Source: Armatimonadota bacterium (lineage in GTDB: Bacteria > Armatimonadota > UBA5829 > DSUL01). From it: a DNA stretch of 64,000 nt. Of this stretch, positions 38,484-60,123 are shown one piece after another. A program made the translations under genes and the position numbers. Every line of letters starts with the position of its first letter. The stretch's first letter is position 1. The notes below the pieces were generated by a model that was not told the DNA's origin, ran no database searches, and saw only the letters and a list, made by a program, of their open reading frames with translations. Where the stretch lies: positions 480,001 through 544,000 of the forward strand of contig JBDHZC010000002.1 in assembly GCA_039811685.1 (NCBI GenBank). Reading direction: 5' to 3'.

Positions 38484-41400
38484 CTACTCTATGTCAGACT
38501 GACGCCTTGGCCTGAGAACACTGCGATAACCGCCGGAGGCTGGTTCCATAGATATGACACCTGTCACCGTAACCATCTGTCCGATAGCCGGAGGCGTGAT
38601 CACTTGCCCACTGGCCAGCCCGCTGAAGCTCACTTTGATGCCGCTTCCACCCGCGGGGTCGCTCACGCCGGAGCCATCGTCCATCACCCAGTACCCGGCA
38701 TCAATGGCTGTGATGCGCCCTGTGGTTTTGCACAGCAGTCCGATACTGTTCAGGCCGTTGCCGCCGGTGACACCGGGCTGTCCGGAGGCGGGTGGTCCAC
38801 CGCCGAGGTCTTTGTTGCGCATAACAACCGGAGCTATCTGCTGCGCGCTGTTGGTAATCTGGAGCGTGCTCAGGCGGATAGCGCGTTCACCACCTGAGTT
38901 TATAAGGGCGCCTGCAATGCTGACTTCCGAGCCTTCCGAGGGCATTACCTGGCCGGTCGGAACCACCTTGATGGCCGCTCCTCTGCTCGGCTCCTCCACA
39001 TAGAAGCAGTCCGCGTAAACAGCCGTTACAATCTTGCCCGCCAGATTCACAACCACACCGTCCGAATTGAGCTTCGCCTGCCCGATATTCTGCTGCGCCG
39101 CTGACTGCACAACCAGAATACCGTCTGAGAATCCTGTCGCGCTCCAGATGCGTGCGCCATTTCGCGCGGTGGCCGAGAAGTAGTACACCACACCCGGCGT
39201 CAGATCCAGATCGGAGCGGGTCACAGATGTTTGAGTTCCCACGCTTGTCCAGGGTATCACGTCGTCTGTTCCGGGCCACGTGCCGATAGCGTAGCGGTAC
39301 TCGACGACACCGGACTCGGGATCGGAAGAAGACCACGAAGCAGACAGAGTTGTCAGACTGGTTGTCGCCGCGCCTGTGTCAAGGACGGTCGGCGTGATCG
39401 GAGGAGTGGAGTCCGCAATGTTGGAATCCTTAAAGTTGAACACTGTGCCGTTGTAGGACGCCACCACAACGCTACCATCGTTGGAGATCACCGGCGACGA
39501 CAGCACCGCATAGCCTGTCTGATACTGCCACTTCAGATTGCCGCCAGTGTCCAGCGCATACACGTGCCCGTCGCCTGAACCGAAATAGATATAGCCGTCC
39601 TGGGAGACCACGGGAGATGAGCGCACCATCCCATTGGCGTCAAACTGCCATTTGACTGTTCCGTTCGGATTCAGCGCCATGAACAGTCCGTAAGACCAGT
39701 CGTTGCCGAATCCCACATACACCGTACCATCCGGCGTGACCGAGGGTGAGCAGTCTGGCGGCCAACCCATATAGTAGCGCCACTTGAGAGTGCCGTTCGG
39801 ATTCAGCGCGTAGAAATAGCCGTCTCCGGAACCGGCAAATATGGCGCCGTCCGGGCCAATGGCCGGAGAGGCGTCCACCGCGCTGCCCGTCTGGTACTTC
39901 CACTGCAGAGTGCCAGTGGCTGCATCCAGAGCATAAATTGCCCCATCTCCAGACCCGAAATAGATCGAGCCTGTATCGCTGAGCGCTGGTGAAGACCACA
40001 AAGAGCCGCCTGTAGTGTACTTCCACTTCTGGGTGCCGTCCGGGTTCAGGGCGTAGAAAGACCAGTCCTGACAGCCAAAGTACACGGTCTGGTCTGGGGT
40101 GATCAAAGGAGACGACCAGATCGCATCACCCGCATTGAAGCGCCAGCGCAGTTGCCCGTTGGAGGCCAGAGAGTACAGATAGCCGTCGTACGAACCGAAG
40201 AAAACCGTCCCGTTGGCTCCGATTGCGGGTGAGGAGTCCACCGGCCCGTTGGTCTGGTACGTCCACTTCAGCGTGCCATTCCGCGAGATCGCATAGAGTT
40301 TTCCGTCACCACTCCCGTAGTAGATCGTGCCGTCACCGGCGATAGCGGGCGAGGAGTCCAGCCAGCCGTTTACGTTGTACTCCCACATCAGAGCGCCAAC
40401 GCGCGACCCTGACAGATTGCTGATGCCCCTGTTTTTGCTGTCCCCGCGGAACTTGGACCATGTGACGGAGGAGACGTATGTGATGCCATCGCTTACGCCC
40501 ACGGCGCTCCACAACCCAGCCTTGTTGCGCGCCTTGACAGCGAAGTAGTACGTCTGACCCGGGTTCAGACTCAATCCGGAGCGGCTGATCTGTGTCGCCG
40601 CGCCTGCGCTGGTGAAAGGCACAACATCCGTACCGCCAGGCGAGGTTCCGATAGCGTACTGAAACTCGGCGATGCCGCCCTGAGGATCTGAAGCGCTCCA
40701 CGAAGCCTGCAGGAAATCTCCGGAAGCTGTCACATCGCCGTCGTCTGTAACCACCGGCGTGCTTGGCGGCGTCGTGTCCACAGCAATACCGTCACTCGTA
40801 CCAACCTGGCTCCACAGATTGACGCTGTTGCGCGCTCGCACCGCAAAATAGTAAACAACGCCTTCAGAGAGACTCAGTCCATTGCGGGTGACAGAAGGCG
40901 TTATGCCGGTTGATGTCCAGTTGACGACACTTGTGCCTCCGGGTGAAGTGCCGATGGCATACTGATATTCGACAATGGCCGTATGCGGCTCAGAAGACGA
41001 CCAGACCGCATGCAGCGTGTTTGTCGAAGAGGTGTACTCCCCGTCATCCGTGACAGCCGGCCTGGACGGCGCGCTGGCGTCAACGGTGATGCCGTTGCTA
41101 GTCCCGACAGCGCTCCACTGACTGGCATTGTTGCGCGCTTTGACAGCAAAGTAATACGTCTGACCGTCCTGAAGGCTCAGACCGGCTCTTGTAACCTGCA
41201 GCGCCGTGCCGGCCGATGTCCAGTTGACCACATCCGTAGCGCCAGAAGTCGTGCCGATGGCGTACTGGTACTCCGCGATACCGCTTTGCGCGTCTGCTGC
41301 GCTCCAGGAAGCGTGCAGCGAGGCGTTCACGGTGGTAAACTCCCCATCATCAATCACTGTCGGAGTGGATGGAGGAGAGGAGTCAATGATTATGCCATCG

Positions 41401-44400
41401 CTGACGCCAACCGCGCTCACTAACCCTGCGCCGTTGGTAGCCCGGACTGAGAAGTAATAGACTCCACCTTCCGTCAGATTCAGGCCACTTCTGGTAACCT
41501 GCGTATCTGTGCCCGCAGATGTCCAGTTGACGACGTTGGTCAACCCGGGCGCTGTCCCGATCGCGTACTCATACTTCGCTATGCCACTCTGCGGGTCGCT
41601 GGCAGCCCATGACGCGTGTAGCGACGTGGCGGAGGAGCTGTAAGCGCCGTCATCAGTGACGGTTGGCTGGGTCGGAGGAGTGCGATCGACAGTGATACCG
41701 TCGCTGACGCCGATGGGACTCATCACACCGACGGCGTTGCGCGCGCGCACAGCAAAGTAGTAGGTGACCCCGTCCTGCAGCGAAAGCCCGGAGCGCGTAA
41801 CGCCCGCCGTCGTACCTGTCGAAGTCCAGTTGACGATGTTGGTAGCGCCGGAGGTCGTCCCAATCGCATACTGATATTCAGTGATGCCACTCACTCCCGG
41901 GTCCGCCGTCCATGTTGCGTGAAGCGTCGTGCCGGACTGAGTGTAATCTCCGTCGTCTGTGACGACCGGCCGCCCAGGACCGCTTGAGTCCACGGTAATT
42001 CCATCGCTGAAACCGGAAGAGCTCCAGTGTCCGGCCTGATTCAAAGCCCGAACCGAGAAATAATAGGTTACGCCGTTTTGCAGGTTGAGACCGGTGGCTT
42101 CCACAAAGCTGTTGGTCCCGGTCGAAGTCCAGTTCACGACGTTGCTGGAGCCCGGGCTGGCGCCGATGGCGTACTGGTACTCAGCAATCCCGCTTTGAGG
42201 GTCTGAGGCGCTCCAGGTAGCGTGGAGTGTATCCGTTGAAGACGTGTAAACTCCGTCATCCGTGACTACGGGAGTCGTAGGCGGCGAGCGGTCAATCGTG
42301 ATACCGTCGCTTGACCCAACCGGCCCGAGCAATCCCGCGCCGTTACGCGCCCGAACGGAGAAGTAGTAGGTGACTCCCTCCGCCAGCGAAAGCCCGGAGC
42401 GAGTGACGGACGTAGTTCCTCCAACTGAGGTCCAGTTGACTACATTTGCCGCGCCAAGCGTAGTGCCGATGGCGTACTGATACTCGATAACGCCACTTTC
42501 AGGGTCTGAAGCGCTCCAGGTTGCGTGCAGGCTGTCTGTGGCGCTGGAGAAGGCGCCATCGTCGGTCACAACCGGGGCGGAGGGCGCGCTGCCGTCCACT
42601 GTGATGCCGTCGCTGACACCAACAGCGCTCCACAGTCCTGCGCCGTTTCTGGCTTTCACGGCGATGTAGTAAACAACTCCGTCCTGTAGCTGCAGGCCTG
42701 TCGCCGTCGCCTGCAGCGCCGTGCCAGCGGATGTCCAGCCCAGAACATTTGTGGCGCCTGGTGTGGTACCAATGGCGTATTGATACTCTGCGATTGCACT
42801 CTGGACATCGGTGGCAATCCAGCTACCGTGAAGCTGATTGCGCTGCGAAGTGTACTGCCCGTCGTCTGTCACCACCGGCGTAGAAGGCGGCGTCAGATCC
42901 AGCCGGATCCCGTCACTCACACCAACAGAGCTCCACAAATCGGCCCCGTTGCGCGCGCGGACGGAAATATAGTAGGTCACCCCGTCCTGCAGAGAAAGCC
43001 CGGTGCGAGTCACCTCTGCCGCGCCGCCCGTCGACGCCCATCCGGTCACTTCCGTTCCCCCAGGTGAGGTGCCGATGGCGTACTGATAATCCGCAATACC
43101 GCTTACCGGGTCCGAGGCGCTCCAGACGGCGTGCAGGGAGTTCGCGCTGGAGGTGAATGCGCCGTCATCCGTCACGACGGGCGCGCCTGGTGGCGTTCTA
43201 TCCACCGTAATCCCATCGCTCTTTCCGACCTGACTCACAAGTCCCGCTCCATTGGTGGCGCGAACGTAAAAATAATAAGTCTGGCCGTCAATCAGCGGGA
43301 GGCCATTTCGCGTTACAGTTGTCGCAGACCCTACCGATGTCCAGCCAACCAGGTCGGGATTGGCGCCACCGGTCCCTATGCCGTATTCATATCCAACAAC
43401 CGCAGAGTGTGGGTCCGAAGACGACCACCACGCCCGCAGCGTGTTCGGCGACGAAGTAAACTGCCCGTCATCTGTAATCAGAGGCGTCGTCGGTGGGCTG
43501 GAATCCACAATCACGCCATCGCTGAAGCCCACCTGACTCAGTTGACCTGCGCCGCTGGTTGCCCGGACAGAAAAGTAGTACGTGGTCCCGTCAGTAAGCG
43601 ACAGCCCCGTAGCTGTGACACTGGTCGCGTTTGTCTGTGTCCAGCCCTTGACGTCCGTCTGACCCTGTCCGGAGCCGATTGCGTACTCGTAGAACGCGAT
43701 ACCGGATTCTGGATCACTGCTTGACCAGGTCGCATGCAGGGAACTGGAGCTCGTGCTGTAGCTGCCATCATCCGTGACAACCGGTGTCGATGGCGGAGTG
43801 CGGTCCAGTTTGATGCCGTCGCTTGTGCCAACGCTGGAAACCAGGCCAGCGGCATTTGTAGCCCGCACGGAGAAATAGTAGGTTACGCCATCCTGGAGAT
43901 TCAGTCCCGCGCGCGTAACGGAAGCTGTTTGTCCGGTAGATGTCCAGCCGACAACATTAACCGCTCCCGGCGATGTACCTATCGCGTACTCGTAGAGTGT
44001 AATGCCGCTTTCAGCGTCTGCCGAAGTCCAGGACGCGTGCAGTGAGGTGCTGAGGTTTGTGTACTGCCCGTCGTCCGTCACCACCGGCGTAGAAGGCGGC
44101 GTGAAGTCCACGGTGATTCCGTCTGAGACGCCGATGTCCGACCAGACGCCTGCGCCGTTTTTGGCCTTTACACTGAAATAGTAGCGTGCGCCGTTGGTCA
44201 GGGCCAGCCCGCTGCGCGTCACCGAAGCAGCCGTGCCAGTTGACGTCCATCCAAGCACGTCCGTACCGCCGGAGGTGGTTCCGATAGCGTACTGGTACTC
44301 GCTGATTCCGGTCTCCGGATCCGAGGCAGACCAGGTCGCGTGCAGAGATGTAGCGCTGGTGCTGTAGCTGCCGTCGTCAACAACGACCGGAGTTGTTGGG

Positions 44401-45521
44401 GGCGTACTATCACGCACAAACGAATAGAGTTTGCCGTCGCTGCACCCCGCGTAAAGTGTCCCGTCCTGAGCGATAGCGGCCGAGCTGTAGCCAGACCCGC
44501 CCAGTGACGACTGCCACAGGATAGAGCCATCCGGCTGAAACGCGTACAGCTTGCCGTCGAAAGACGGGCAATAAATCGTGTCGTCTCCGCCGACGGCTGG
44601 GGAAGCCTGAATTTTGTCCCCTGTCGCGGTGCGCCACTTGAGCGTGCCTTGAGGAGTAATTGCGTAGAGATAGGTATTGTCTGAACCTATGTAAATGGTG
44701 CCATCAGAGCCTATGGCCGGTGAAGATGTCACTGCCGCGCCAATGTTGTAGCTCCAGTTCAGCACGCCAGCCTGAACAGCGTACAGATAGCCGTCCGCGC
44801 TCGCTATGTAGACGACTCCGGCGCTGTCGATGGCCGGAGAGGAGTCGAGACGGTTAGAGGCTCGATAACGCCATGCCCGCGTACCGTTTGGCTGCAAGCA
44901 GTACAGGTAGCCGTCCTGCGCTCCGAAATAGATCCGTCCGTCCGCGCCGATTGCCGCTGAAGACAGGATCGGAAACGCCACGTAGTAATTCCACTTGATG
45001 GAACCGTTCGAGTTAATCGCGTAGAAACGGCCGTTTGTCGATCCGCAATACACTGTTCCATCAGGCGCTACTGCCGGGGAAGCCTTGACCTGCTTCCCAA
45101 TACCAGTGCGCCACTTCAGAGTTCCGGATGACGTAATGGCGTAAACATAATAATCATCTGACCCGACGTAGACTGTTCCGTCTGATCCAACAGTTGGCGA
45201 AGAATAGCTGCCGGAGTGGACGTTGTAGCGCCACTTCTGTGTGCCGTCCGGATTGACGGCGTAAAGGTACTGATCCTGCGAGACAAAGTAAACTGTCCCG
45301 TCCGGCGCCACCGCCGGCGATGAAGATATGCCTGCGCCTGTGGTGAATGTCCAGCCCGCAATTCCCACCGACGGCCCGACGGTTGCCGTCCGTCCAGTAC
45401 CGCGGATATCGGCACGGAAGCGTGGCCACCCGCTCTGGGCAAGCTGCGCCAGAGAAGGAGCTGATGCGGCTGCCAGCCCTGCCGAAACGAGCACAGCGAT
45501 TGCTATTGACCTGATGCGCAC
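38484..45521 (-). CDS. Giant secreted protein (2345 aa): PQQ-like beta-propeller, 13 FN3/Ig-like repeats, second propeller, 1 FN3-like repeat, conserved C-terminal domain
   Basis: GTG start after GGAGGAGG, signal peptide, SSPA..DGT.Y.GS.D..LYA blade repeats and 101-aa repeats. Confidence 0.9.
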   Translation of the reverse strand: MRIRSIAIAVLVSAGLAAASAPSLAQLAQSGWPRFRADIRGTGRTATVGPSVGIAGWTFTTGAGISSSPAVAPDGTVYFVSQDQYLYAVNPDGTQKWRYNVHSGSYSSPTVGSDGTVYVGSDDYYVYAITSSGTLKWRTGIGKQVKASPAVAPDGTVYCGSTNGRFYAINSNGSIKWNYYVAFPILSSAAIGADGRIYFGAQDGYLYCLQPNGTRAWRYRASNRLDSSPAIDSAGVVYIASADGYLYAVQAGVLNWSYNIGAAVTSSPAIGSDGTIYIGSDNTYLYAITPQGTLKWRTATGDKIQASPAVGGDDTIYCPSFDGKLYAFQPDGSILWQSSLGGSGYSSAAIAQDGTLYAGCSDGKLYSFVRDSTPPTTPVVVDDGSYSTSATSLHATWSASDPETGISEYQYAIGTTSGGTDVLGWTSTGTAASVTRSGLALTNGARYYFSVKAKNGAGVWSDIGVSDGITVDFTPPSTPVVTDDGQYTNLSTSLHASWTSADAESGITLYEYAIGTSPGAVNVVGWTSTGQTASVTRAGLNLQDGVTYYFSVRATNAAGLVSSVGTSDGIKLDRTPPSTPVVTDDGSYSTSSSSLHATWSSSDPESGIAFYEYAIGSGQGQTDVKGWTQTNATSVTATGLSLTDGTTYYFSVRATSGAGQLSQVGFSDGVIVDSSPPTTPLITDDGQFTSSPNTLRAWWSSSDPHSAVVGYEYGIGTGGANPDLVGWTSVGSATTVTRNGLPLIDGQTYYFYVRATNGAGLVSQVGKSDGITVDRTPPGAPVVTDDGAFTSSANSLHAVWSASDPVSGIADYQYAIGTSPGGTEVTGWASTGGAAEVTRTGLSLQDGVTYYISVRARNGADLWSSVGVSDGIRLDLTPPSTPVVTDDGQYTSQRNQLHGSWIATDVQSAIAEYQYAIGTTPGATNVLGWTSAGTALQATATGLQLQDGVVYYIAVKARNGAGLWSAVGVSDGITVDGSAPSAPVVTDDGAFSSATDSLHATWSASDPESGVIEYQYAIGTTLGAANVVNWTSVGGTTSVTRSGLSLAEGVTYYFSVRARNGAGLLGPVGSSDGITIDRSPPTTPVVTDDGVYTSSTDTLHATWSASDPQSGIAEYQYAIGASPGSSNVVNWTSTGTNSFVEATGLNLQNGVTYYFSVRALNQAGHWSSSGFSDGITVDSSGPGRPVVTDDGDYTQSGTTLHATWTADPGVSGITEYQYAIGTTSGATNIVNWTSTGTTAGVTRSGLSLQDGVTYYFAVRARNAVGVMSPIGVSDGITVDRTPPTQPTVTDDGAYSSSATSLHASWAASDPQSGIAKYEYAIGTAPGLTNVVNWTSAGTDTQVTRSGLNLTEGGVYYFSVRATNGAGLVSAVGVSDGIIIDSSPPSTPTVIDDGEFTTVNASLHASWSAADAQSGIAEYQYAIGTTSGATDVVNWTSAGTALQVTRAGLSLQDGQTYYFAVKARNNASQWSAVGTSNGITVDASAPSRPAVTDDGEYTSSTNTLHAVWSSSEPHTAIVEYQYAIGTSPGGTSVVNWTSTGITPSVTRNGLSLSEGVVYYFAVRARNSVNLWSQVGTSDGIAVDTTPPSTPVVTDDGDVTASGDFLQASWSASDPQGGIAEFQYAIGTSPGGTDVVPFTSAGAATQISRSGLSLNPGQTYYFAVKARNKAGLWSAVGVSDGITYVSSVTWSKFRGDSKNRGISNLSGSRVGALMWEYNVNGWLDSSPAIAGDGTIYYGSGDGKLYAISRNGTLKWTYQTNGPVDSSPAIGANGTVFFGSYDGYLYSLASNGQLRWRFNAGDAIWSSPLITPDQTVYFGCQDWSFYALNPDGTQKWKYTTGGSLWSSPALSDTGSIYFGSGDGAIYALDAATGTLQWKYQTGSAVDASPAIGPDGAIFAGSGDGYFYALNPNGTLKWRYYMGWPPDCSPSVTPDGTVYVGFGNDWSYGLFMALNPNGTVKWQFDANGMVRSSPVVSQDGYIYFGSGDGHVYALDTGGNLKWQYQTGYAVLSSPVISNDGSVVVASYNGTVFNFKDSNIADSTPPITPTVLDTGAATTSLTTLSASWSSSDPESGVVEYRYAIGTWPGTDDVIPWTSVGTQTSVTRSDLDLTPGVVYYFSATARNGARIWSATGFSDGILVVQSAAQQNIGQAKLNSDGVVVNLAGKIVTAVYADCFYVEEPSRGAAIKVVPTGQVMPSEGSEVSIAGALINSGGERAIRLSTLQITNSAQQIAPVVMRNKDLGGGPPASGQPGVTGGNGLNSIGLLCKTTGRITAIDAGYWVMDDGSGVSDPAGGSGIKVSFSGLASGQVITPPAIGQMVTVTGVISMEPASGGYRSVLRPRRQSDIE
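40476..44411 (-). repeat. 13 tandem ~303-bp (101-aa) coding repeats, FN3-like
   Basis: Consensus DxTPPxTPVVTDDG..LHAxWSASDPxSGIxEYQYAIGT..WTS..GLxLxxGxTYYFxVRAxNxAG..SDGITV, counted by hand. The units are diverged at DNA level. Confidence 0.93.
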
Positions 45522-45603
45522 TCCCGACTTCCTCCTCCATACCAGAGCGCATTTGCCAGAGAGGCTAAGCACCGATATCCGCGCAAAGTACGATTACTCC
45601 TGT

Positions 45604-48600
45604 CTAAGGGGCCGCAATATCCGACTGCTTTCGCGCCAGGATCCGGCGTCTGAGTGTGGTCCCGGAGGACTCTGACGAGCTGACACCTGTAACTATCAAC
45701 GCGTCGCCAAGCGCGGGCTTGGTGAGGGAGCCGCACTGAACCTTGACACCCTGATGCCCGGAGCCATCGTCAAGGGCTTTGCCGTCGTCTAGATAAAAGA
45801 ACGGCTCTGCTCCTGTGCCGACATAGGTCACCTTGCCGGCCATTCTGATAAGCAGACCCACGTTGTTGGAACCCAGGAATGCCGAGCCGATATTCGTGTT
45901 GATGAGCAACCCTGTACCGCCGATGCTGAAGCTGCGCATGGTGAGCGGCGCCGGAATCACTCCGGCCGGATTGACCACCGTCACGTTTGAAGCGGTAATC
46001 TGGCGCTCGCTGCCGACAGTCTCAATCGTGCCCATAATATCCACTACGTTGCCTTCCTGGACATTCGCATTGGTGACAACTTTGATTCCTGCGACACGGT
46101 TGGGTTCTTCAATGTAGAAGATACCGCCCAGCTGATCTGTCCCGGCAATAGCCACCTTGCCTGATATGGAAACACTCGTTCCGTCGCTCAGGGCCTTGGC
46201 TGCCTCGATGGTGGGCACGACAATAGCATTCGGGTCATTCAACGTCCTGCCAACCAGACGTTTGGACGCGTTTTTGAAACGGGAGTAGAAAACAGCCTGC
46301 GCTGAAGCGCCGCCAGCAATGACGGGGGCGTACTCTGAATAGTTCGAACTCGCCATCACTGTCGGATTGGCGTCAATCACAATCCCCGCTGCGTTCAGCC
46401 GGGTGAGGTAGATGTCGTAGTTGGATACTGCAGCGCGATTGTCCTGCCAGGCAACGATGTAGTTGGAGCCTGCCCAGCACAGACTGGGCGCGCTCTGCTC
46501 ATTCGGAGCCGTGACAATCGCCAGATCACTTCCAACAACCGCAGCCGCCGTGGACAGTCGCGTTCCGTAGATATCAAAGACGTAGTTGTTCCGCGCGTCC
46601 GACCAGACGACCAGATACTCAGAGCCATTGTAGGCTATCTTCGGTTGCGCCTTCAGGGACGGCGCGGACGAAAGCTGCACTCCCGCGGCCTGGCCGATCG
46701 AGCCGTTGTTCAGCACTTTTGTCGCGTAGATGTCGCCCTGACCCGAGCGCTGATCCTGCCAGACCACCATGAAATCCGTGCCGTCCGAAGCTACGGAAGG
46801 CTCAAGCTGATCGCCCAGAGCCCCACTCACGACGCCGCTAAGAGGCATCAACGCGCCGGCAGAAGTGACAAAAGTCCCCATAATATCGGTGAAGTAGTTC
46901 GGCGCGAGGCCGGTTCGCTGGTCGCGCCACACAACGAGATACTTCGTACCGTTCCACGCTATGGAAGGCTGACTCTGATCGAGATCGGCAGAAGCGATGA
47001 GGATAGGGGAACCGACCGGCTGCATGTTCGCGTCCAGCCGAACACCCCGGATATCGTAGCTGTAACCGATGAACTCCTTCCACGCCACCAGATAACCCGA
47101 TCCACTCCACGCGATCGCGGGTTCCAACTGCTCCGCACCCGCGGCCAGCAAGATACCCTGCGCATCCTGCACAATGCCGTTGCTGTCAACCCTGGCGCCG
47201 TAAATCTGGTAGTAACCGTTGCGGCGATCGGCCCAGACTACTCCGTAACCATTTCCATTCCAGCAGGCTGCATAGGATGGCTGGCTCTGAATCGCGCTTG
47301 AAACGAGATTGGTGCTTACGATTCCTCCGAAGACGTTCATCTTCGTTACGAACACGTCGGAGTTCGTCGGATCAATGGTGTACCAGGCGACCAGACCAGG
47401 AGCGATACGCGGACCCCTGTTTCCCGTGGAGGCATTGGTGACGACCGGAAACGGCTGCAAATCGAGAGTCTGAGCGCTGCTGTTCAGCCTGCAACCTTTG
47501 ATGTAGCGCGTGCCAACCTGACGGTCCCGCCACACCACCATAAACTGCGTTCCGTCCCAGGTAATGTCCGGTATCTCCTGATCCCCACTGCCCGGAAAGA
47601 TAGACTTGCCGCCGGTATCGACCACCGACCCGGCTGTTGTGTATCGCGTCCCGTAGATGTCGAGATCGCTTCCTCTGCCGTCCTGCCAGACAATAATAGC
47701 TGTCCCGGTGGAATCGCACGCCACAGACGGGGAGAGCTGCGGGCCCAGAGCCCCGGCGGCAGGAGCGCCCGCGCGGTTTGAGATCAGAGTGTCACCGCCC
47801 TGCTTCTGTGTGGAGGAGTTGATGCGGCAGCCGTAGATGTCCGTGTCGCTTGATTCAGAGTTGCGCTGGTCTTCCCAGACCACCACGTAGTTTGTCCCGT
47901 TCCACGCGATATCCGGATTCTGCTGGTTGTCTGCGGTGAAGGCGATAGCCGATCTGTTGGTCACAGCGCCCGCCGCGGTCACTCGCGCTCCGACAATGTC
48001 GAATCCGGTTCCCTGATTCTCCTGCCACACCACGTGCCAGTCCGTGCCGTTGCTGGCCACCGCCGGCAGATACTGCTCTGGGACGGGATTGTTAGGATTG
48101 ATCGGGGCCGTTATCGAAATCGGGAAGCCGTCCGGATCCAGAATGCTGCCGGAGGTGCTGACGCGCGCGCCGTAGATGTGCGGCTTGGAGTCCACCGCGC
48201 GACGGTCCGACCACACCACCAGAAAGTTCGAGCCGTTCCAGGCGACAGCCGGATTCATCTGGTCGCGCGCCGCGTGACCACCACTCGAGGTAGAAGAGAT
48301 CAGGAAAGCCTCTCCCATTGCCGGGACGCCGCTGGAATCGAGAAAGATCCCGTAGATGTCGTAGCCCGTATCAGGATCATTCGAGGAGTTCAGACGATTT
48401 CGGCTGTCCTGCCACACGACGAGATAGCCTGTCCCGCCCGCTGCGACCGCGGGAGCTTCCTGCGTGAAAGGCGCCGCAACACTGACCTGCCCGACCGGAA
48501 ACTCCGGACCTGCGGCGATCTCTGCCGCTCGCGCCTCCCCAATCAGAGCGCATCCGGCCAGCGCTACCCATGCGATCAGACTGCTGCGTACGATTGTGCG

Positions 48601-48609
48601 ACTTTTCAT
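45604..48609 (-). CDS. Secreted repeat protein (14 PxxAWNGxxYxVVWxDxR..DIYG repeats, probably two 7-bladed propellers) plus conserved C-terminal domain
   Basis: ATG after AGAGG, signal peptide and about 14 repeats of 55-65 aa. The CTD is homologous to that of the neighbouring giant. Confidence 0.85.
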   Translation of the reverse strand: MKSRTIVRSSLIAWVALAGCALIGEARAAEIAAGPEFPVGQVSVAAPFTQEAPAVAAGGTGYLVVWQDSRNRLNSSNDPDTGYDIYGIFLDSSGVPAMGEAFLISSTSSGGHAARDQMNPAVAWNGSNFLVVWSDRRAVDSKPHIYGARVSTSGSILDPDGFPISITAPINPNNPVPEQYLPAVASNGTDWHVVWQENQGTGFDIVGARVTAAGAVTNRSAIAFTADNQQNPDIAWNGTNYVVVWEDQRNSESSDTDIYGCRINSSTQKQGGDTLISNRAGAPAAGALGPQLSPSVACDSTGTAIIVWQDGRGSDLDIYGTRYTTAGSVVDTGGKSIFPGSGDQEIPDITWDGTQFMVVWRDRQVGTRYIKGCRLNSSAQTLDLQPFPVVTNASTGNRGPRIAPGLVAWYTIDPTNSDVFVTKMNVFGGIVSTNLVSSAIQSQPSYAACWNGNGYGVVWADRRNGYYQIYGARVDSNGIVQDAQGILLAAGAEQLEPAIAWSGSGYLVAWKEFIGYSYDIRGVRLDANMQPVGSPILIASADLDQSQPSIAWNGTKYLVVWRDQRTGLAPNYFTDIMGTFVTSAGALMPLSGVVSGALGDQLEPSVASDGTDFMVVWQDQRSGQGDIYATKVLNNGSIGQAAGVQLSSAPSLKAQPKIAYNGSEYLVVWSDARNNYVFDIYGTRLSTAAAVVGSDLAIVTAPNEQSAPSLCWAGSNYIVAWQDNRAAVSNYDIYLTRLNAAGIVIDANPTVMASSNYSEYAPVIAGGASAQAVFYSRFKNASKRLVGRTLNDPNAIVVPTIEAAKALSDGTSVSISGKVAIAGTDQLGGIFYIEEPNRVAGIKVVTNANVQEGNVVDIMGTIETVGSERQITASNVTVVNPAGVIPAPLTMRSFSIGGTGLLINTNIGSAFLGSNNVGLLIRMAGKVTYVGTGAEPFFYLDDGKALDDGSGHQGVKVQCGSLTKPALGDALIVTGVSSSESSGTTLRRRILARKQSDIAAP

Positions 48610-49060
48610 GAATCCTCTACCTCTATCGGGCTCGCCAGAGTACCTGGCGGCCTCTCCCTGCTGTCGCAATGGAGCCAGAACCAAAATCGTCTCCTGTTCC
48701 GCTACCTGTCAGGCGAAAGCAAGCGCGACGAACGATCCACAGCGATCTCTCCCTCGCAATGAAGCAGCCAACTGCTCCACACGCGCGGAAACAAACCAAG
48801 GGCTAACCAGTAGGGGCGCACAAACAATAGCAGCACTGAGCGTGCAGGCTACGTGACGCCACCGCGAAGAGAGGTGACGAAACGCATGCCACTTCAGTTC
48901 AGATTTGGAGTTGTGTCCCAGGTTAGCGGCAATCCAGCATTCTGGCCGGCTGCCCGATCTTCAGTTTGCGTCCAGACCCGCGCAACGCCTCTGGCGTAGC
49001 GGCTTCTCCTTTCGGGCCTGGCGCAAAGAAATCTGTTTGGCTGGCAAAGAGCCCCGAAGC

Positions 49061-51793: not shown

Positions 51794-52142
51794 GGGGCAA
51801 TTGGCGAAATTTCAAGCCTGTACGGCTCGAATCAGGTATTTATAACAGGATGCTTTTCACCTCAGCGACGCAACCCGTCTCCATTCCTGACCTTCTTGCC
51901 ACCTGGATCGGTATCGCTTGCGCGCACTCCGACCCTCAGCCTTGCACCCGCTCCTCATCTCAACTGCGCTGCTTGCGCGACGCCGTGTTCCGAGTTAGCG
52001 GTCTGTCATTCAGTATAAAGCTCAGCGCGTCGTTTGTGTCCTAGCAACAATACCAGAAGTTACCTGTAGCAGATCACTCAGTTGCCACTGTGTGACAACT
52101 GCTCCTCGTAACTATACGGGGATTCGGCGCTTTTCTTAGTAA

Positions 52143-52157
52143 TGGCACAGAATATGC
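52143..52157 (+). promoter_or_regulatory. Putative sigma54 -24/-12 promoter
   Basis: TGGCAC-AGAAT-ATGC (GG-N10-GC), about 50 nt before the PEP-CTERM gene. Confidence 0.5.
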
Positions 52158-52208
52158 GCCCGGCTCTCGTACCGCAGCAGCGTCCACCACGCTCAGCGTA
52201 CAAAAGCC

Positions 52209-53447: not shown

Positions 53448-53470
53448 GCAGCCTTCACCACATACGCAGC

Positions 53471-53501
53471 CGGGCGGGACATCCCCCTCTCGTCCCGCCC
53501 G
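53471..53501. terminator. Hairpin between convergent genes
   Basis: CGGGCGGGAC-N11-GTCCCGCCCG 10-bp stem with no clear U-tract. Confidence 0.45.
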
Positions 53502-53572
53502 CTACTGCGCGCTATGACTGATGAGCGAATCAGCCTTTGTCCCCCGCTTATGCCCGATTATCTCTCACAGGT

Positions 53573-56500
53573 CTACGGATGGGGCACGGCCACGGTGATG
53601 TCTGAAGAGCGGCGCACTCTTACAACACGCCTGTAGCCGCCGCTTCCGTCCGGCTCCATTGTGCTGATTCCTGTAACTGTGACAAAGTCCCCTGCCGCGG
53701 GCTTTGCGAGTGTCCCACACAACACCTTCGCCGTAACTGGATCGCTATTGTAGCTTGACCCGTCATTGATGGTAAACGAATCCGCAGAGACCGACTCTAC
53801 CTGGCCACCCACCTTCACGAGAAGTCCGATGTTGTTCAACCCGTAGCCCGTGTGCACACCTGGCGTATTAGGATTCAGCGCACCGCCGCCCAGTGAGCTC
53901 AACCGCATCACGAGCGGAAGTATGGCCGGGTTGCCGGAGAGATTCACCGTGACCGAGCTTGCGTCAATAAAGCGCTCCCCGTTCAACGTCTGGATTGTGC
54001 CGCGCACCGTCACGCTGTCACCCTCCTGGAGAGTCTGTGCCGTGGCGACGCGGATGCCGGAGCTGCGGTTGGTTTCCTCGATGTAGAGATACTGTGGATA
54101 CTCCTGCGTGGATCCCGCTGTGACAATCTTGCCGTTTAACAGCACCTGATCACCGTCCGGCAGCGCCTTTATGGCAGAAATAGACGCTGTGCCCGAAAGC
54201 AAACCGAGGAAATCCGCCTCGGAGCTCATCCCCCACACCGCATTGACAGTCTGCGACGCAGGCGAGAATGTCCAGGACGGCTTAGCGGCGCTGAGGGAAT
54301 AGAGTCCGGGAGCGAGATCATCAAGTGTGTACGATCCGTCAAGCGCGGTAAGCGCGGACTTCCCGCCCGGGCTGGCCGTGATGGTCACTCCGGGCACCCC
54401 GTGCTGATCAGTCACGGCCTCATAGCGGTCTGTGATGAAGCCCCAGTCCGAGTTCCCAGGGTCTGACGTCAGCACAATCTTCAGAGAATCACCGTTCACC
54501 CACTCAGACCAGACGTCACTGTAGTGCCCGGTGAAAGTATCAATGATCTGATCGCTGGAGTCCGTAACATCAATGAAGTCAAATCCGGGCTCCACCTCCA
54601 GGCGCGTGAAGTGCACCCGGATCTTGGAAGCCCCTTGCGGCCCCTGCACAGTGTAGGTCTCCGAGACGTTGTCACCATAAGGATGCTGAGACTGCAGTAC
54701 AACCGCTTCCTGCACAGTCGTCCCGACAGTCACAGACCCCGTGATCGTCGCTGGCGGACGCGCTGTGAAGTTAACTCCCGAGAGCGTGCTGCCCGGGGAA
54801 GGCTCAGCGCTCCGGGCGTTTGGCTGGAACTGCCAGTTTGGATACGAAGGCGTCACGGTGTAGGACACAGGCTCCAGCCCCGACAGAGTATAAGCGCCTC
54901 CCACGCCGGTAGTTGTGGTATGGTTGCCTGGCTGAGCTGTAACAGTGACGCCGGCAGGAGCGGGCTCTGTCAACAAGTCCGTTTCGTAGCCATCCATCCT
55001 GAAGCCGTAGTCCACACCTGTTGCGTCCGTCACCAGATGCAGTACCAGCGCATTGCCGGGCACCCACTGGCTCCAGTAGTCCGTCTTGTTGCCGGTGATG
55101 TCCTGATAAGGAGTCCCGTCAGCATCCTCAATGTAGAGATGATCCAGACCATTCTGCAGCGCCACTTCGTCAAAGTGAGCGCGGATATGCGTAGCGCCCA
55201 CAGGTCCTGTCACCGTGTACTTCACATCGGAGTTGTTCTGGTAGTTGTGCGGTGATTCGACTTCGTAAGCCGTCACACCGCCCAGAGCTTTTTGAATGAC
55301 ACCGCTGATAGACGCAGGGGCCGCAGAGCCGGTGAAATCAACCCCCGGCGCCGCCTGATCTGCCACAACTACTGCCGTACTTGGCGGAGCGAACGTCCAG
55401 CCGGTCTTGGCGGCAGAGACGGTGTAGCTGTCCGCCGGCAGGCGCAGAGTGTAGCGTCCGTTAGCGCCCGTTGTCGTGTCTTTGGTCGCGCTGGACCCTG
55501 TCGCTGTGACCGTGGCTCCCGCGATGGGATTTCCGGACGTGGACAGCAGCGTTCCCGTAATATAGGAACCTGGAAGGTGACCGGAGGCCACAAGCGCAAA
55601 AGGCTGCGGGCCGCCTGGAACGCTAAAGCCTGTGACCGTGACCGTATAAACGCCCGTCAAAGGCACGCTGACGTCCACGCTTTCAACATTGTTGACGCTG
55701 TCTGTGGCGCCGTTGCCGCGGTAAACTGTGCCGTTGGGAGCCGTGACAGAGAGATTCAGATCATTCACCAGCTCTTTGGCTGCCAGAGGAGAGCCTGGAG
55801 GATCAGTCCACACCAGCGTCACCGCAAACGGAGCGTCGCTTCCAAGCACCGTGTACTGATACGTGCGCGTCTGCCCCGTTGAAATACCGGAGGTTTCGTC
55901 CACATATTCGATCTGCCTGGGCGCTGGCGGGTCTATGGCGGCATTCACATCCACGCGCCCCCAGCCTTCAACGCTGTTCGGGCGCACGGGAATCTCAGGA
56001 GGCACGGCTCCGATATACTGCCCCGGCGCCATGTCTTTTGCGCTGTTGAGCAGCGCCGCCTTCACGAGCGCGGCGCTTGGAGCTATGCCAAACGATGAGT
56101 TCAAATACTGTCTGAGGAGGACGGCCGAGCCTGCCACCGCCGGAGCAGAAAAGCTGGTGCCACCCCAGTAGCTGTAGTGAGAATCATACGGCATCCATCC
56201 CGGGTTGCCGACAAGCTGGCTGCTCAAAGCCACAATATTTGTGCCGGGCGCGCAGATATCGGGCTTGATGCGACCATCGGCGCATGGGCCGCGGCTGCTC
56301 CACGCCGCCATGCCGCTCGGATTGTCAGAAATTGGATCGCTGTTTATCGGCGCCTGTGGGAAATCTGACCCCCAGTACGTCCCGTAGGACTGGGAGCGGC
56401 CGGTGGCGCGCAGGCTCTCAGTGGCGCCCACGGAAATACAGTTTTTCGCAGTGGCGGGGGAATAAAGCGCGCCGGAGTCAGTCCGTCCGTCAGCGTTTGC

Positions 56501-57622
56501 GTCCACGCCGTCGTTTCCTACGGGAAAGACCAGAACCGCGTCTTTATGATTCCAGACGAAATCGTCCACCTGCTGCGAAAGTGTTGTGTACTTCCCCTCC
56601 ACAGGGGATCCCCAACTGTGGTTCTGAACGCGGGCGCCGTCCAGATAGGGCGGCTGGAAGAGCTGCGAGAGAGTCACGGGCGGATAGACAAAGGAGCTTC
56701 CGTCACCTATGGACTGCATGATAATGGAAGCCTCAGGCGCAACCCCGCAAAAGGAATCTGTATACGTGTGGGAGCCAGCGTTGGAGCCAGACAGCGCTCC
56801 CGAGCCTGCCGCCACAGACACGCAGAAAGTGCCGTGCCCGCTCAGGTCGCTCCAGTCGTCTGGGCGGCGCAGAGCGTACGTCTTGATAACGCGGCCGGCC
56901 AGGTCCGGGCTCAGTGTAGCCAGGTTGCCAGTGTCCAGACCGGAATCCGCAAAAGAGATGATCTCACCCGCGCCAAAAAGCCCGGTTCTGTTGCGAACGG
57001 GTGTGACACCGATGATGGACTGCACAACGTTGTTGGCAGCGCGCGGAGGCGCCCACTCTTCAATCCAGCGCACTTCCTCGAGACCCGCAATCCGGTCCAG
57101 AGCTCTGGCCGGGATTGTGGCCAGCAGAATGCCGCCCGCCACATCGCTGTCGCGCAACAACTCGCCACCGCTTGCGCTGATGACCTGGATGACGGTTGTG
57201 GCTGCTTCGTCACCAAAGACCCGGATGAGGACTGTCAGGCTCTTCTGCTGAGTCTTTTTTTTCAGGTGAGGATCAATACGATAGCGAGCATGCAGCCTTC
57301 CCATCCAGGCGATACAGGCAAGCCCGCGCACCTTGGCAATCTGAGAGCGTTTGAGACGCGCTATGTAGGCGTTCTCCGGCAGGTAGTCCCGCAGCTTGAC
57401 ACCCATCTTCTGAAGTGAAGCCTTCCACTCTGGTCGGGGTGTCCCGCTGAACTGGAGGATGTAGTATCCACCGCGAGAGGGCGTCAGGCTCTGAAGCTGC
57501 ACTGTGCTCTTTACTTCCCTGTCCACCGGTCCAGCTTTCAGCAGCAGAGGCGCGGGGGCGCTCCAGACGCTGGTTGCAGCCATCAAACAAAGGAAGACAG
57601 AGATCAGAAAGGGTCTGTTCAT
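53573..57622 (-). CDS. Secreted S8 subtilisin-like protease (Kp43-type) with jelly-roll, Ig-like and two CUB domains plus conserved C-terminal domain
   Basis: Propeptide, catalytic ADSGLD / SGHGT / GTSFSAP, DGRIKPDICAPG, VNDLNL, two CUB-like segments and the shared CTD. Confidence 0.92.
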   Translation of the reverse strand: MNRPFLISVFLCLMAATSVWSAPAPLLLKAGPVDREVKSTVQLQSLTPSRGGYYILQFSGTPRPEWKASLQKMGVKLRDYLPENAYIARLKRSQIAKVRGLACIAWMGRLHARYRIDPHLKKKTQQKSLTVLIRVFGDEAATTVIQVISASGGELLRDSDVAGGILLATIPARALDRIAGLEEVRWIEEWAPPRAANNVVQSIIGVTPVRNRTGLFGAGEIISFADSGLDTGNLATLSPDLAGRVIKTYALRRPDDWSDLSGHGTFCVSVAAGSGALSGSNAGSHTYTDSFCGVAPEASIIMQSIGDGSSFVYPPVTLSQLFQPPYLDGARVQNHSWGSPVEGKYTTLSQQVDDFVWNHKDAVLVFPVGNDGVDANADGRTDSGALYSPATAKNCISVGATESLRATGRSQSYGTYWGSDFPQAPINSDPISDNPSGMAAWSSRGPCADGRIKPDICAPGTNIVALSSQLVGNPGWMPYDSHYSYWGGTSFSAPAVAGSAVLLRQYLNSSFGIAPSAALVKAALLNSAKDMAPGQYIGAVPPEIPVRPNSVEGWGRVDVNAAIDPPAPRQIEYVDETSGISTGQTRTYQYTVLGSDAPFAVTLVWTDPPGSPLAAKELVNDLNLSVTAPNGTVYRGNGATDSVNNVESVDVSVPLTGVYTVTVTGFSVPGGPQPFALVASGHLPGSYITGTLLSTSGNPIAGATVTATGSSATKDTTTGANGRYTLRLPADSYTVSAAKTGWTFAPPSTAVVVADQAAPGVDFTGSAAPASISGVIQKALGGVTAYEVESPHNYQNNSDVKYTVTGPVGATHIRAHFDEVALQNGLDHLYIEDADGTPYQDITGNKTDYWSQWVPGNALVLHLVTDATGVDYGFRMDGYETDLLTEPAPAGVTVTAQPGNHTTTTGVGGAYTLSGLEPVSYTVTPSYPNWQFQPNARSAEPSPGSTLSGVNFTARPPATITGSVTVGTTVQEAVVLQSQHPYGDNVSETYTVQGPQGASKIRVHFTRLEVEPGFDFIDVTDSSDQIIDTFTGHYSDVWSEWVNGDSLKIVLTSDPGNSDWGFITDRYEAVTDQHGVPGVTITASPGGKSALTALDGSYTLDDLAPGLYSLSAAKPSWTFSPASQTVNAVWGMSSEADFLGLLSGTASISAIKALPDGDQVLLNGKIVTAGSTQEYPQYLYIEETNRSSGIRVATAQTLQEGDSVTVRGTIQTLNGERFIDASSVTVNLSGNPAILPLVMRLSSLGGGALNPNTPGVHTGYGLNNIGLLVKVGGQVESVSADSFTINDGSSYNSDPVTAKVLCGTLAKPAAGDFVTVTGISTMEPDGSGGYRRVVRVRRSSDITVAVPHP

Positions 57623-58032
57623 AAGGAGTCCGCCAGGTACACTTGAGGTAGTGGAGGTTACTGGAACAACGAATCTGGCCGTTACCGGCACACGCGAAAA
57701 CAGCCGGGCCCGACACGCAAAACCCCACACATGGAAGTATACCGTACTGCCTGCGCCGAGTATCCAAACAGGTTTTCTTCACAGGGAGAAGACAAAGGGC
57801 TGGAGCCTGGCTGGCCGCCATTACTGTGACTGTAATCTCCATCCGCACGCGAATCGCCGAATACGGCAGCGAACCTCGATCAATATCCGCTCCGCACAGG
57901 CAAAGGTACTGGTTTTGTCCGCGAAGCGCCCCGCTGAGGGCACGAAAGACGTATAATAGATAAGAACCACTTCTTCCCTGACCCTGCGTCCGCCGCACAG
58001 TCACAAACGAGACCAACCACAGGAGCCTTCCT

Positions 58033-60123
58033 TTGCGACTTATCCACCTGCGACTCGCCACTTTCGCCCTTCTCGCCGCCCTGTCTGCGCCAGGCTCGGC
58101 CGCTATCTACGTCTCTCAGTCCGCGCCCGGTCCGCTGCACAACGGCGCGTCATGGCTAAGCGCCTACAAGTCACTGTCGCAGGCGCTCAGTGTGGCGACA
58201 GCTGGGTCTCAAGTGTGGGTAGCGCGGGGGACATACGTCGGGACGTTTACGGTGCCGGCGAACGTCGCTGTGTTCGGAGGCTTCGCGGGCACGGAGAGCG
58301 CTCTGGCCGGCAGAAATCCCAACAGCAACCGCACAATTCTTGACGGTGCGCTGGCCGGCTCTGTCGTGACGATAAACGCAGGATCTCAGGTGGACAGCTT
58401 CACGATCCGAAACGGCCGCAGCTCATCCGGAGCCGGTATCGTCGGGACTAACGCGATCGGCGCGATTATCTCCAATAACACCATCGAGAATAACACCAGC
58501 ACATCCGATGGAGGCGGAATCTATCTGTACTCCAACGGCTGGTCCAACAGGGTCATCATCAGGGGCAATCTCGTACGAGGCAATTCTTCCGGTGGCAGTG
58601 GAGGGGGCATGGGACTCTACGGTCCTGGCCATACGGAAGCGGACTCTCCACAGCTCTTTGACAACGTCGTGCGTGACAACAAAGCCGCTACGGATGGTGG
58701 CGGTATCTGGGCCTACTTCTCAACACCGCGCGTTGAGCGCAACATGATCTGGAAAAACCGCACAGGCAGAAACGGCGGCGGTCTGTTCATCTATCACAGC
58801 TACGCAACAATCATCTGGAATCACTTCTGGATGAACCGCGCCGACTCCCCCACAAAGGGCGGTGGCGCGCTGTTTATCGACTTCCACTCGACGCCAACCG
58901 TTGCCGACAATATCTTTGACCGCAACACTGCCTTTCAGGGCGGCGGCACGTGGAACGAGTACCAGAGCCAGGCTAAAACCTGGCGCAACATCTTTACAGG
59001 CAATACAGCCACTTCCGGCGCGGGCATCTACATTGCTCAGGGCGCCTCACCGGAAGTTACCAACAGTCTTTTCCTTCGCAACAAAGCCGCCTACGGCGGC
59101 GCGGTAAGCGCGGACTATCCGTCCTCCTCACCCGGTTTCAAGTTTACGCACAACACTGTCGTTTCCAACTCTGCGACGGTCTCTGGCTCAGCGCTGTCTC
59201 TTACGCGCTACGCCAGCGCGGGTGTGGCTAACAACATCTTTGCGCACAACTCCGCCCCGGATGGCACGATAGCGCGAGACTCCACCTCCTGGCCAAACCT
59301 GGTGGGCAACGACTTCTGGCAAAATACAGGCAGCAATCTCGCCGGTGGGACTGATCCAGTTGGCACGCTTGGCAACATCTCTGCCGACCCGTCCTTCGTC
59401 AACCCCTCAATTGACTGCTACCAGCTTCAGCCTGGCTCCGCCTGCATAGACACGGCCAGCGCCAGTGCCGCAACCACCTATGACCTCAACAACCGCCCGC
59501 GCCCGTTCGACGGAGATTCCAACGGATCCAGCCTTCCGGACATCGGCGCCTATGAATACGGAACCGGTCCGCTGGTGCTCTTTGCTGTGCAGCAAGCCTA
59601 TCAGCTTCCGCCTGGCGTCAGTGTGGCTATCTCTCCGCGTGTCGTGAACGGCTCGTGGGAACAGGGCTTCTTCGTGCAGGACTTTGACAGGACGCGCGGA
59701 CTGAAGATCGAAACCTCCGCAACGCCTCCGCCTGCAGGACGTGTGGTGAGCGCACAGGGAACGCTCTCGGACGCCGCAGGGTACCGCACACTCTCCGCGG
59801 CTTCGTGGGCCGGTACGGACACAGCCTTCGCTCTCGCCCAGCCCCTGGCCATGGCGCTACCGCGTGCAGCGGAGACGATCGGGCTGTCCAACATCGGGCT
59901 GAGCGTGAGCATAACCGGCAAAGTGGAAAACCTGGAAACAGACGGATTCTGGATGAGTATTAACGGACAGTCACTCACGCGCATCTACTGCGATCCTGCG
60001 TGGATTCCCGTCTCCGGCAAGACCTGCACGGTGATTGGAGTCGTTGACTACGACCCCGTCTCTGCGCCTGGCGGACGCATTGTCCGAGCGCGTACAGCCT
60101 GGGACATCATCCAGCAGGACTGA
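58033..60123 (+). CDS. Secreted right-handed beta-helix protein with choice-of-anchor-Q-like segment and divergent conserved C-terminal domain
   Basis: Signal peptide, GASWLSAY and VWVARGTY motifs, N.A..GGG repeats, ADPSFV...LQPGSACID...DIGAYE and the CTD. Confidence 0.85.
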   Translation: MRLIHLRLATFALLAALSAPGSAAIYVSQSAPGPLHNGASWLSAYKSLSQALSVATAGSQVWVARGTYVGTFTVPANVAVFGGFAGTESALAGRNPNSNRTILDGALAGSVVTINAGSQVDSFTIRNGRSSSGAGIVGTNAIGAIISNNTIENNTSTSDGGGIYLYSNGWSNRVIIRGNLVRGNSSGGSGGGMGLYGPGHTEADSPQLFDNVVRDNKAATDGGGIWAYFSTPRVERNMIWKNRTGRNGGGLFIYHSYATIIWNHFWMNRADSPTKGGGALFIDFHSTPTVADNIFDRNTAFQGGGTWNEYQSQAKTWRNIFTGNTATSGAGIYIAQGASPEVTNSLFLRNKAAYGGAVSADYPSSSPGFKFTHNTVVSNSATVSGSALSLTRYASAGVANNIFAHNSAPDGTIARDSTSWPNLVGNDFWQNTGSNLAGGTDPVGTLGNISADPSFVNPSIDCYQLQPGSACIDTASASAATTYDLNNRPRPFDGDSNGSSLPDIGAYEYGTGPLVLFAVQQAYQLPPGVSVAISPRVVNGSWEQGFFVQDFDRTRGLKIETSATPPPAGRVVSAQGTLSDAAGYRTLSAASWAGTDTAFALAQPLAMALPRAAETIGLSNIGLSVSITGKVENLETDGFWMSINGQSLTRIYCDPAWIPVSGKTCTVIGVVDYDPVSAPGGRIVRARTAWDIIQQD

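Follow-up and report, generated by a model that had tools for sequence, protein, structure and literature searches.

A predicted tandem OB-fold tail shared by unrelated exported proteins in one class of Armatimonadota: a candidate surface-retention module

Genes and tails in the window

The window analysed in this work is a 64-kb stretch (C2:480001-544000) of the Armatimonadota genome G000, an assembly of 3.42 Mb in 15 contigs that is 97% complete. Four of its genes encode exported proteins that end in a common domain of about 190-208 residues, a predicted pair of OB folds that is hereafter called the OB tail. The genes and their tails are listed below in window positions, with scores from the leave-out hidden Markov model (HMM) described after the list.

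38484..45572, minus strand: giant exported protein of 2362 aa, with two PQQ-type beta-propeller blocks, about 20 FN3-like repeats and an OB tail
38487..39110, minus strand: tandem-OB tail of the giant protein, residues 2155-2362 (HMM envelope; 185.5 bits)
38484-38486, minus strand: stop codon of the giant gene
45604..48684, minus strand: exported repeat protein of 1026 aa without a Pfam family, plus an OB tail
45607..46233, minus strand: tandem-OB tail of the 1026-aa protein, residues 818-1026 (190.0 bits)
53573..57730, minus strand: S8 subtilase of 1385 aa, with CarboxypepD_reg-type spacers and an OB tail
53582..54202, minus strand: tandem-OB tail of the subtilase, residues 1177-1383 (201.3 bits)
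58033..60123, plus strand: DUF1565 / right-handed beta-helix protein of 696 aa, with a divergent OB tail
59563..60120, plus strand: divergent tandem-OB tail of the beta-helix protein, residues 511-696 (82.6 bits, independent E-value (iE) 1.8e-23)

In a MAFFT alignment of the four tails, the other three presented 37, 41 and 25% identity to that of the giant protein, and 22 columns were invariant. The tail of the beta-helix protein is without the inter-barrel loop. The leave-out HMM was built from 26 paralogous tails located elsewhere in the genome, with the four window tails excluded, and was searched against 11,063 open reading frames (ORFs). It scored the window tails at 201, 190, 186 and 83 bits (iE 8e-60 to 1.8e-23), while among 100 shuffled tails 78 gave any score and the highest reached 9.1 bits. 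The original prediction, which had aligned these four C-termini by eye, is borne out by the coordinates, the identities and these scores, and the termini that it quoted agree with the translations.

The regions upstream of the four tails are mutually unrelated, as revealed by a Pfam scan of these passengers: propeller and FN3 repeats in the first, an S8 protease and a DUF1565 protein in two others, and no Pfam family at E<=0.01 in the 1026-aa repeat protein. Different passengers behind one tail had been predicted, as had Sec-type signal peptides, and signal-peptide-like N-termini were recognised in all four proteins by eye and with a crude rule. The signal peptide of the 1026-aa protein has an L-A-G-C lipobox-like motif, and this protein may be a lipoprotein.

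Fold and relatives of the tail

Thirty paralog tails were aligned as profile A2, which was used for an AlphaFold2 model and for a sequence search of the PDB. The model of the subtilase tail (predicted local distance difference test (pLDDT) 94.4, predicted template modelling score (pTM) 0.90) consists of two five-stranded barrels, covering approximately residues 2-95 and 94-207 of the tail. Both are closed barrels of OB topology arranged in tandem, which places the modelled tail in the OB-fold superfamily. Searched with this model, Foldseek returned the tandem-OB proteins Pot1, HIN-200, Deinococcus SSB (DrSSB) and Teb1, besides YgiW for a single barrel (template modelling score 0.70 for barrel 1, target-normalised). 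A Foldseek-independent search, VIA-align, matched barrel 1 to the AsnRS anticodon-binding domain (Z 11.9) and to YgiW (Z 10.9, root-mean-square deviation 2.2 Å over 79 residues), and barrel 2 to the MCM N-terminal OB domain (Z 11.3) and RPA14 (Z 10.7). According to the model and the two structure searches, the tail module is a tandem OB fold, as had been proposed from the OB-like appearance of each half.

The tail had not been recognised as a named family, and no curated Pfam-A or NCBIfam family was found above its cut-off on the window tails. Hints of OB type were present below the cut-offs, from BOF, tRNA_anti-codon, DUF5666, the stress_OB_fold model and the start of the ExeM/NucH model. The best window tail reached 19.4 bits against PF01336 tRNA_anti-codon (cut-off 27 bits). 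The BOF models PF04076, NF033674 and TIGR00156 gave 14.5, 19 and 13 bits, with cut-offs of 25.8, 35 and 108; NF033681 (ExeM/NucH) gave 10-12 bits over about 50 model positions, with a cut-off of 300; and PF18914 (DUF5666) gave 20.7 bits against 27, on the subtilase tail only. Among the paralogs, PF01336 matched three of the 30 tails at E<=0.01, and one of 80 whole OB-tailed proteins passed its cut-off (L083, 32.2 bits vs 27), with the match lying on the tail itself. SLH (PF00395) had no match on any of these 80 proteins, nor did the EEP nuclease domain in the Pfam scan.

In the PDB sequence search, the N-terminal OB region of the EEP-domain proteins 9sf8/9sf9 came first (E 0.002, profile positions 15-98), followed by RPA14 and YgiW. 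Judged by these profile comparisons, the module is distantly related to YgiW and to the OB region of extracellular nucleases, and the YhcR-like reading of the original prediction is supported in this sense, with ExeM/NucH-type EEP nucleases and YgiW/BOF as the nearest sequence relatives, all below cut-off. The OB regions of ExeM, Xds, NucH and 9sf8/9sf9 are likewise extracellular OB barrels adjoining other domains. They differ from the OB tail in that only its first barrel is matched (12 bits vs 300 for NF033681), its passengers include no nuclease and it is acidic. YgiW is also exported and close in fold to barrel 1, but it is a small stand-alone protein of a single barrel, for which the OB tail remains below cut-off (19 vs 35 bits; 14.5 vs 25.8 bits).

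The paralog tails are only about 30-45% identical among themselves. The positions conserved among 80 of them are mostly Gly and hydrophobic residues, with few polar ones (D40-R41, E71-R72, N119, D142-G-S and R192, in tail numbering). With a median pI of 5.18 and a median net charge of -4 (range -16 to +3), the tails are acidic, and they contain less Trp, Tyr and Phe than the passengers that carry them.

These properties bear on a possible role as a target-binding module similar to the OB region of ExeM, Xds and YhcR, a role in which enzymes would be fastened to the substrate or matrix, namely to extracellular DNA or to a polysaccharide of biofilm or detritus, instead of to the cell. The nuclease OB regions, 9sf8/9sf9 and the YgiW models being the best sequence matches, and PF01336 being passed by one paralog, speak for such a role, and several copies in one protein would add avidity. 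According to two reports, deletion of the OB region abolished the nuclease activity of ExeM and Xds, which is in favour of target binding, and the ExeM paper suggests that the region interacts with the substrate (PMC6085458, PMC6746945). Against it are the acidity of the tails and their poverty in aromatic residues, as well as the lack of a recognisable nuclease among 80 passengers; moreover, a single target for proteases, peptidoglycan amidases, amylases and adhesin-like giants is difficult to imagine, unless it is the cell's own matrix. We consider this role unlikely. A generic DNA binder or a classical aromatic carbohydrate-binding module was also considered and is disfavoured by charge and composition.

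Copy number and distribution

Genes were called as the longest ORFs in our own ORF call, and these were searched with hmmsearch, using a first HMM made from the four window tails and a second one made from 30 tails. In G000 the first HMM found 80 OB-tailed ORFs and the second found 82. They sum to about 67,400 codons, approximately 6% of the genome. Two of the OB-tail genes appear damaged or truncated: a beta-helix gene at C1:288155-289216, with an open frame of 491 aa and an upstream frame without a start codon, and a truncated-looking fragment of 95 aa at C12:1700-1987, which has the second barrel alone.

The counts of genomes given here are descriptive and not statistical, since related genomes are not independent. 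In a sample of 151 genomes of the phylum, the module was present at E<=1e-8 in 21, namely the window genome, all three others of its family, eight of ten others of its class and nine of 137 from other classes. All eight class members matched at the maximum of the scoring scale, and each of the nine genomes of other classes had one match. Among all 53 class genomes examined, 47 matched at E<=1e-30, most of them with 12 to >60 matches. The OB tail was absent from the genera g9, g106, g117 and g10, and one or two matches were present in g103 and g118. In another family of the phylum, the module was found in seven of 31 genomes, in one of them as a match split into two pieces and in the other six as one match each.

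A library of 1.84 billion proteins yielded 6,921 cluster representatives at E<=1e-3, and 2,169 at E<=1e-30. When related loci were sought with a single tail in a named genome collection, three of the four found were labelled Armatimonadota or Armatimonadetes and the other 'uncultured bacterium'. The nearest ESM-Atlas clusters are annotated as 'hypothetical protein', with Armatimonadota as the commonest phylum. The OB tail is a shared tail of exported proteins that is uncurated and lineage-specific, and the expectation that an HMM search would recover many signal-peptide proteins in one lineage was confirmed by the 80-82 ORFs of G000 and by the 47 of 53 class genomes.

Passengers and position of the module

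Signal peptides were assigned with a crude heuristic rule, by which 73 of the 82 OB-tailed ORFs have a signal-peptide-like N-terminus, 11 of these with a possible lipobox. Of the nine ORFs that failed the rule, most show a signal peptide if translation begins at an internal or upstream start; two seem truncated, another is situated at a contig edge and a further one is unclear.

Passengers were classified in 80 proteins with Pfam at E<=1e-6. They include four S8 subtilases, five beta-helix proteins, two peptidoglycan amidases and five proteins of propeller, GSDH or NHL type. Ten are of glycosidase type (GHL10 in two, alpha-amylase, GH39, arabinofuranosidase, glucoamylase, Glyco_hydro_cc in two, NAGPA and GH43_C2), and six others have Metallophos, DUF362, FGE-sulfatase, LTD, Laminin_G_3 and F5/8C domains. 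Spacer domains alone (CarboxypepD_reg, fn3, Big_7) were found in 14, PF01336 alone in one, and no family in 33. No recognisable nuclease was detected by Pfam among the 80. Since the tail is found on unrelated passenger classes, it marks the large exported proteome whatever the function, and the module is appended to most of the large Sec-exported proteins of one Armatimonadota class.

With the 30-tail HMM, 72 of 82 copies lie no more than 40 residues from the C-terminus, and the other ten are followed by 167-470 residues; with the first HMM, 68 of 80 copies were terminal and 12 were not. Two of the non-terminal copies stand directly behind the signal peptide, for instance in L082, where the module precedes an FGE-sulfatase domain. 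A domain of about 170 aa that usually stands ahead of the OB tail follows it in two proteins. This domain has no Pfam family; at least six proteins carry it ahead of the OB tail, and a protein of 212 aa has it on its own with a PEP-CTERM tail. Examples in G000 are given below.

C4:335395-336033: about 170-aa shuffled domain
C6:76717-79176: about 170-aa shuffled domain
C7:164450-167218: about 170-aa shuffled domain

The best 150 of the 6,921 library representatives comprise 124 proteins with a single copy of the module, 21 with two, three with three, one with four and one with five, and the final copy is C-terminal in 124; the ranking, being by summed score, gives an advantage to proteins with several copies, and many of the short entries resemble fragments of genes. 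The statement that the domain is always terminal and single-copy holds for the four window proteins, but not across the genome, where ten of 82 copies are non-terminal, nor in relatives with two to five copies. Random positions and cytoplasmic carriers had been named as evidence that would speak against the proposal: no copy was found on a convincingly cytoplasmic protein, and only a minority, about 12%, is placed away from the terminus.

Outside the class, the module is non-terminal in all four proteins examined. Two GHL10-type enzymes continue immediately after the module with a hydrophobic stretch and an Arg-rich end; the other two proteins, about 2,200-2,400 aa in length, have the module some 360-400 residues away from their C-termini. 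The R.R...D[IV] ending of the module is retained before the anchor-like tails of the GHL10-type enzymes; it is therefore assigned to the final strand of the fold and is no sorting motif. A further observation concerns L149 (G145:C4:1717500-1727500), from another Armatimonadota family, whose ORF 2443-9018 encodes an exported protein of 2191 aa with an internal OB module; by eye, its C-terminus resembles paired dockerin-type calcium-binding repeats.

Envelope and known sorting systems

Genes for BamA, LpxC, TamB and OmpH are encoded in the window between 26.4 and 37.5 kb, which indicates that the organism is a diderm with lipopolysaccharide (LPS). The genes of this region are the following.

26393-27214, minus strand: LpxC
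29528-30235, minus strand: OmpH/Skp-like protein
30254-32161, minus strand: BamA with POTRA repeats
32195-32752, minus strand: extracytoplasmic function (ECF) sigma factor
32912-37489, minus strand: TamB-like protein of 1525 aa
37553-38293, minus strand: ComF-like phosphoribosyltransferase with a double zinc ribbon

This outer-membrane biogenesis cluster (26393-38293, minus strand) lies directly downstream of the giant gene and on the same strand. The adjacency was taken as a coincidence, because the 80 tail genes are scattered over the contigs.

The genome has three secretins, three exosortases and one SLH match, on a gene that is not OB-tailed. Sortase (PF04203) had no match in this 97%-complete genome, and LPXTG-type hydrophobic C-termini were not found among the 82 OB-tailed ORFs, none of which has a hydrophobic 15-mer in its last 40 residues. 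For the tail family of the type IX secretion system (T9SS), TIGR04183, the best score in the genome was 21.5 bits, below the cut-off of 23 and elsewhere than on the OB tails, which gave no NCBIfam match; SprA_N had no match in the genome, although the control genomes were silent as well.

Our own regular expression recovered 29 PEP-CTERM-like ORFs in G000, none of them with an OB tail. The OB tail is separate from the canonical PEP-CTERM anchor tag of this genome. One such gene lies in the window (52209-53447, plus strand), separated by 126 bp from the end of the subtilase gene, and encodes a 412-aa PQQ-type beta-propeller that has a canonical PEP-CTERM tail. Across the genome, ten of the 29 PEP-CTERM-like genes have an OB-tail gene no more than 300 bp away, against a mean of 2.7 and a maximum of 9 in 2000 trials of random placement. 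This proximity probably reflects secretome islands. A role of the PEP-CTERM proteins as a cognate receptor family was rejected, since they formed two pairs and 25 singletons in an all-vs-all blastp. A dedicated secretin was also rejected, because the copy number of PF00263 across the 53 class genomes does not track the tail: the tail-rich genomes G073 and G047 have one secretin, and the OB-tail-free G108 and G175 have four to five.

An envelope with LPS requires a second export step for surface or extracellular proteins, and the folded tail could then act as a C-terminal signal that an outer-membrane translocon recognises for secretion, as a functional analogue of the C-terminal domain (CTD) of the T9SS, possibly removed or modified after transport. 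The strong C-terminal bias agrees with this reading, as do the missing sortase match and the lack of any other known surface-sorting signal on tail-bearing proteins; the same applies to G175, described below, whose replacement tail ends at the stop codon in 18 of 20 genes. On the other hand, ten of 82 copies are internal or N-terminal, relatives have two to five tandem or dispersed copies, and in proteins from outside the class the module stands ahead of other domains or of a separate anchor-like tail. In addition, secretin number does not track the tail, no T9SS tail family is above cut-off, SprA_N is unmatched, with a silent control, and the swap to an unrelated fold within one genus would require a matching change of the machine. 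A secretion signal thus seems rather unlikely.

Replacement of the tail in one genus

Genome G175 (genus g117; 5.4 Mb, 97% complete) has ten S8 genes and no OB tail; on its fully readable S8 ORFs, the OB HMM gave nothing even at E<=10. Five of its S8 ORFs share another C-terminal module, a unit of about 145 aa that is in tandem in four and single in the fifth, for which no Pfam or NCBIfam family was found. The model of this tail (pLDDT 91.5) presents two immunoglobulin (Ig)-like sandwiches. The unit has 108 matches in G175 and six matches in three ORFs of G000, where it forms N-terminal or internal repeats and not a tail. Full-length matches of the Ig pair at E<=1e-60 number 44 in G175, compared with 0-4 per genome in the remaining 52 of the class. 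Dozens of large genes in G175 bear this tail; of 20 that were sampled beyond the subtilases, 18 have their stop codon 0-1 residue after it.

L111-L140, e.g. L113:4416-5315: Ig-pair tail loci of G175

In one of the two exceptions the Ig pair runs into an FGE-sulfatase domain that is 43% identical to that of L082 (E 3e-22), in which the OB module occupies the same place. The passengers are also homologous: for four of the five alternatively tailed G175 subtilases, the best G000 homologue is an OB-tailed subtilase, and the fifth has no match. The closest pair of passengers is 42% identical over 694 aa, and the window subtilase is 38% identical over 658 aa. In this genus, an unrelated tandem Ig-like tail stands in the place of the OB tail on homologous passengers, and the Ig pair is a second candidate surface tail of the class. 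Two unrelated folds in one slot on homologous passengers indicate that the job of the tail is independent of the passenger and under selection.

This replacement also bears on the idea that the tail is a structural pedestal without a ligand, or a folding or stability domain, spread by duplication of genes for exported proteins. The small number of conserved polar positions fits a pedestal, and the putative membrane anchor adjoining the module outside the class leaves it in the place of a stalk; the low identity among paralog tails gives no sign of homogenisation toward a common partner. Nevertheless, about 88% of the copies have nothing after them from which a passenger could be spaced, the passengers are unrelated and not one duplicated family, and the wholesale replacement in the same slot within one genus points to selection for a function of the tail. 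A pedestal is likewise considered unlikely.

Another explanation is that diderm Terrabacteria have an undescribed system for surface display whose cargo is recognised by this tail: a dedicated envelope receptor or translocon would bind it and export or fix about 80 proteins per cell. We regard this as improbable, to about the same degree as a secretion signal. If it were true, the genus with the Ig tail would have switched the receptor too, and a comparison of this genus and of the tail-less genera with their sister genera would point directly to the machinery.

Proposed role of the OB tail

We propose that the OB tail is a non-catalytic localisation module. After Sec export, it would keep the passenger attached to the cell envelope, or within the cell's own matrix, through non-covalent binding to a common ligand, which may be an envelope glycan (LPS, exopolysaccharide or peptidoglycan) or an envelope protein, acting as the SLH, CWB2 and LysM modules do in other bacteria. 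A non-covalent module for envelope or matrix retention, and not a cleaved export signal, is a reading suggested by analogy, to which we assign a probability of roughly one half. It is favoured because the positions are flexible and the copies repeated, because the module adjoins a separate anchor outside the class, because the OB tail and PEP-CTERM are mutually exclusive, and because the replacement is lineage-specific, as with wall- and surface-binding modules elsewhere. Lineage-to-lineage replacement of the tail is a known pattern for such modules. The original prediction had left open whether the domain directs export or docks cargo, and the internal, N-terminal and repeated copies, together with a secretin count that does not track the tail, lean to docking or retention.

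Several points weigh against retention. It is suggested by analogy, and its ligand and partner are hypothetical. A Sec signal alone leaves proteins in the periplasm, and a further export step could read the tail. The C-terminal bias (72 of 82 copies in G000, 124 of the best 150 representatives, and the Ig tail at the stop codon in 18 of 20 genes) is as in a sorting signal. A conserved binding face is not evident when conserved residues are mostly Gly and hydrophobic, with few polar ones, and acidic, aromatic-poor tails are unlike typical DNA- or glycan-binding modules. Finally, genera of the class with neither the OB nor the Ig tail indicate that the tail is not essential to the class; the two of them that were examined for S8 proteases have 0-1 of these. 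Two further checks weigh in neither direction: a complex prediction for self-association, with two copies of the tail (A2), scored 0.00 without controls, and in a comparison of orthologue tails for the alpha-amylase passenger, no match at 1e-20 was found in five tail-poor genomes.

SLH, CWB2, LysM and choline-binding repeats are well-known shared surface anchors. Like the OB tail, each is one module on dozens of unrelated exported enzymes and adhesins, including amidases and proteases; they are usually terminal, sometimes N-terminal or repeated, and lineages differ in the module used. The OB tail differs from SLH, CWB2 and LysM in its tandem-OB fold, in the lack of Pfam matches to them on the tails and in its LPS-diderm host. 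The T9SS CTD of Bacteroidota (TIGR04183) is also a folded C-terminal domain on many Sec-exported degradative enzymes and adhesins of diderms. It comprises one beta-sandwich of about 70-100 aa, always at the terminus, whereas the OB tail is a 200-aa double OB barrel with 12% of its copies non-terminal and no T9SS marker above cut-off. The OB tail behaves like anchors of the SLH/CWB2 type or like the T9SS CTD, yet fails the defining features of each. Judging by titles and abstract openings, no description of the module was found in the Armatimonadota literature on secreted C-terminal or sorting domains, OB folds and PEP-CTERM.

This work names and models a domain that marks most of the large exported proteome in a poorly known phylum. 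It also poses the question of how diderm Terrabacteria place large enzymes on or beyond the outer membrane where neither T9SS nor sortase was found. The replacement of the tail and the tail-less genera constitute a natural experiment, from which a partner (ligand pathway, receptor or translocon) is findable by comparative genomics. As a compact tail that folds well and would localise any passenger, the module could find use as a display tag.

A neighbouring gene of the window

The gene next to that of the beta-helix protein (60035-61948, plus strand) encodes a pectate-lyase-like beta-helix protein that has Golvesin_C (PF25275) as its C-terminal domain and lacks the OB tail. This domain is also found inside two OB-tailed GHL10 enzymes, L038 and L047.

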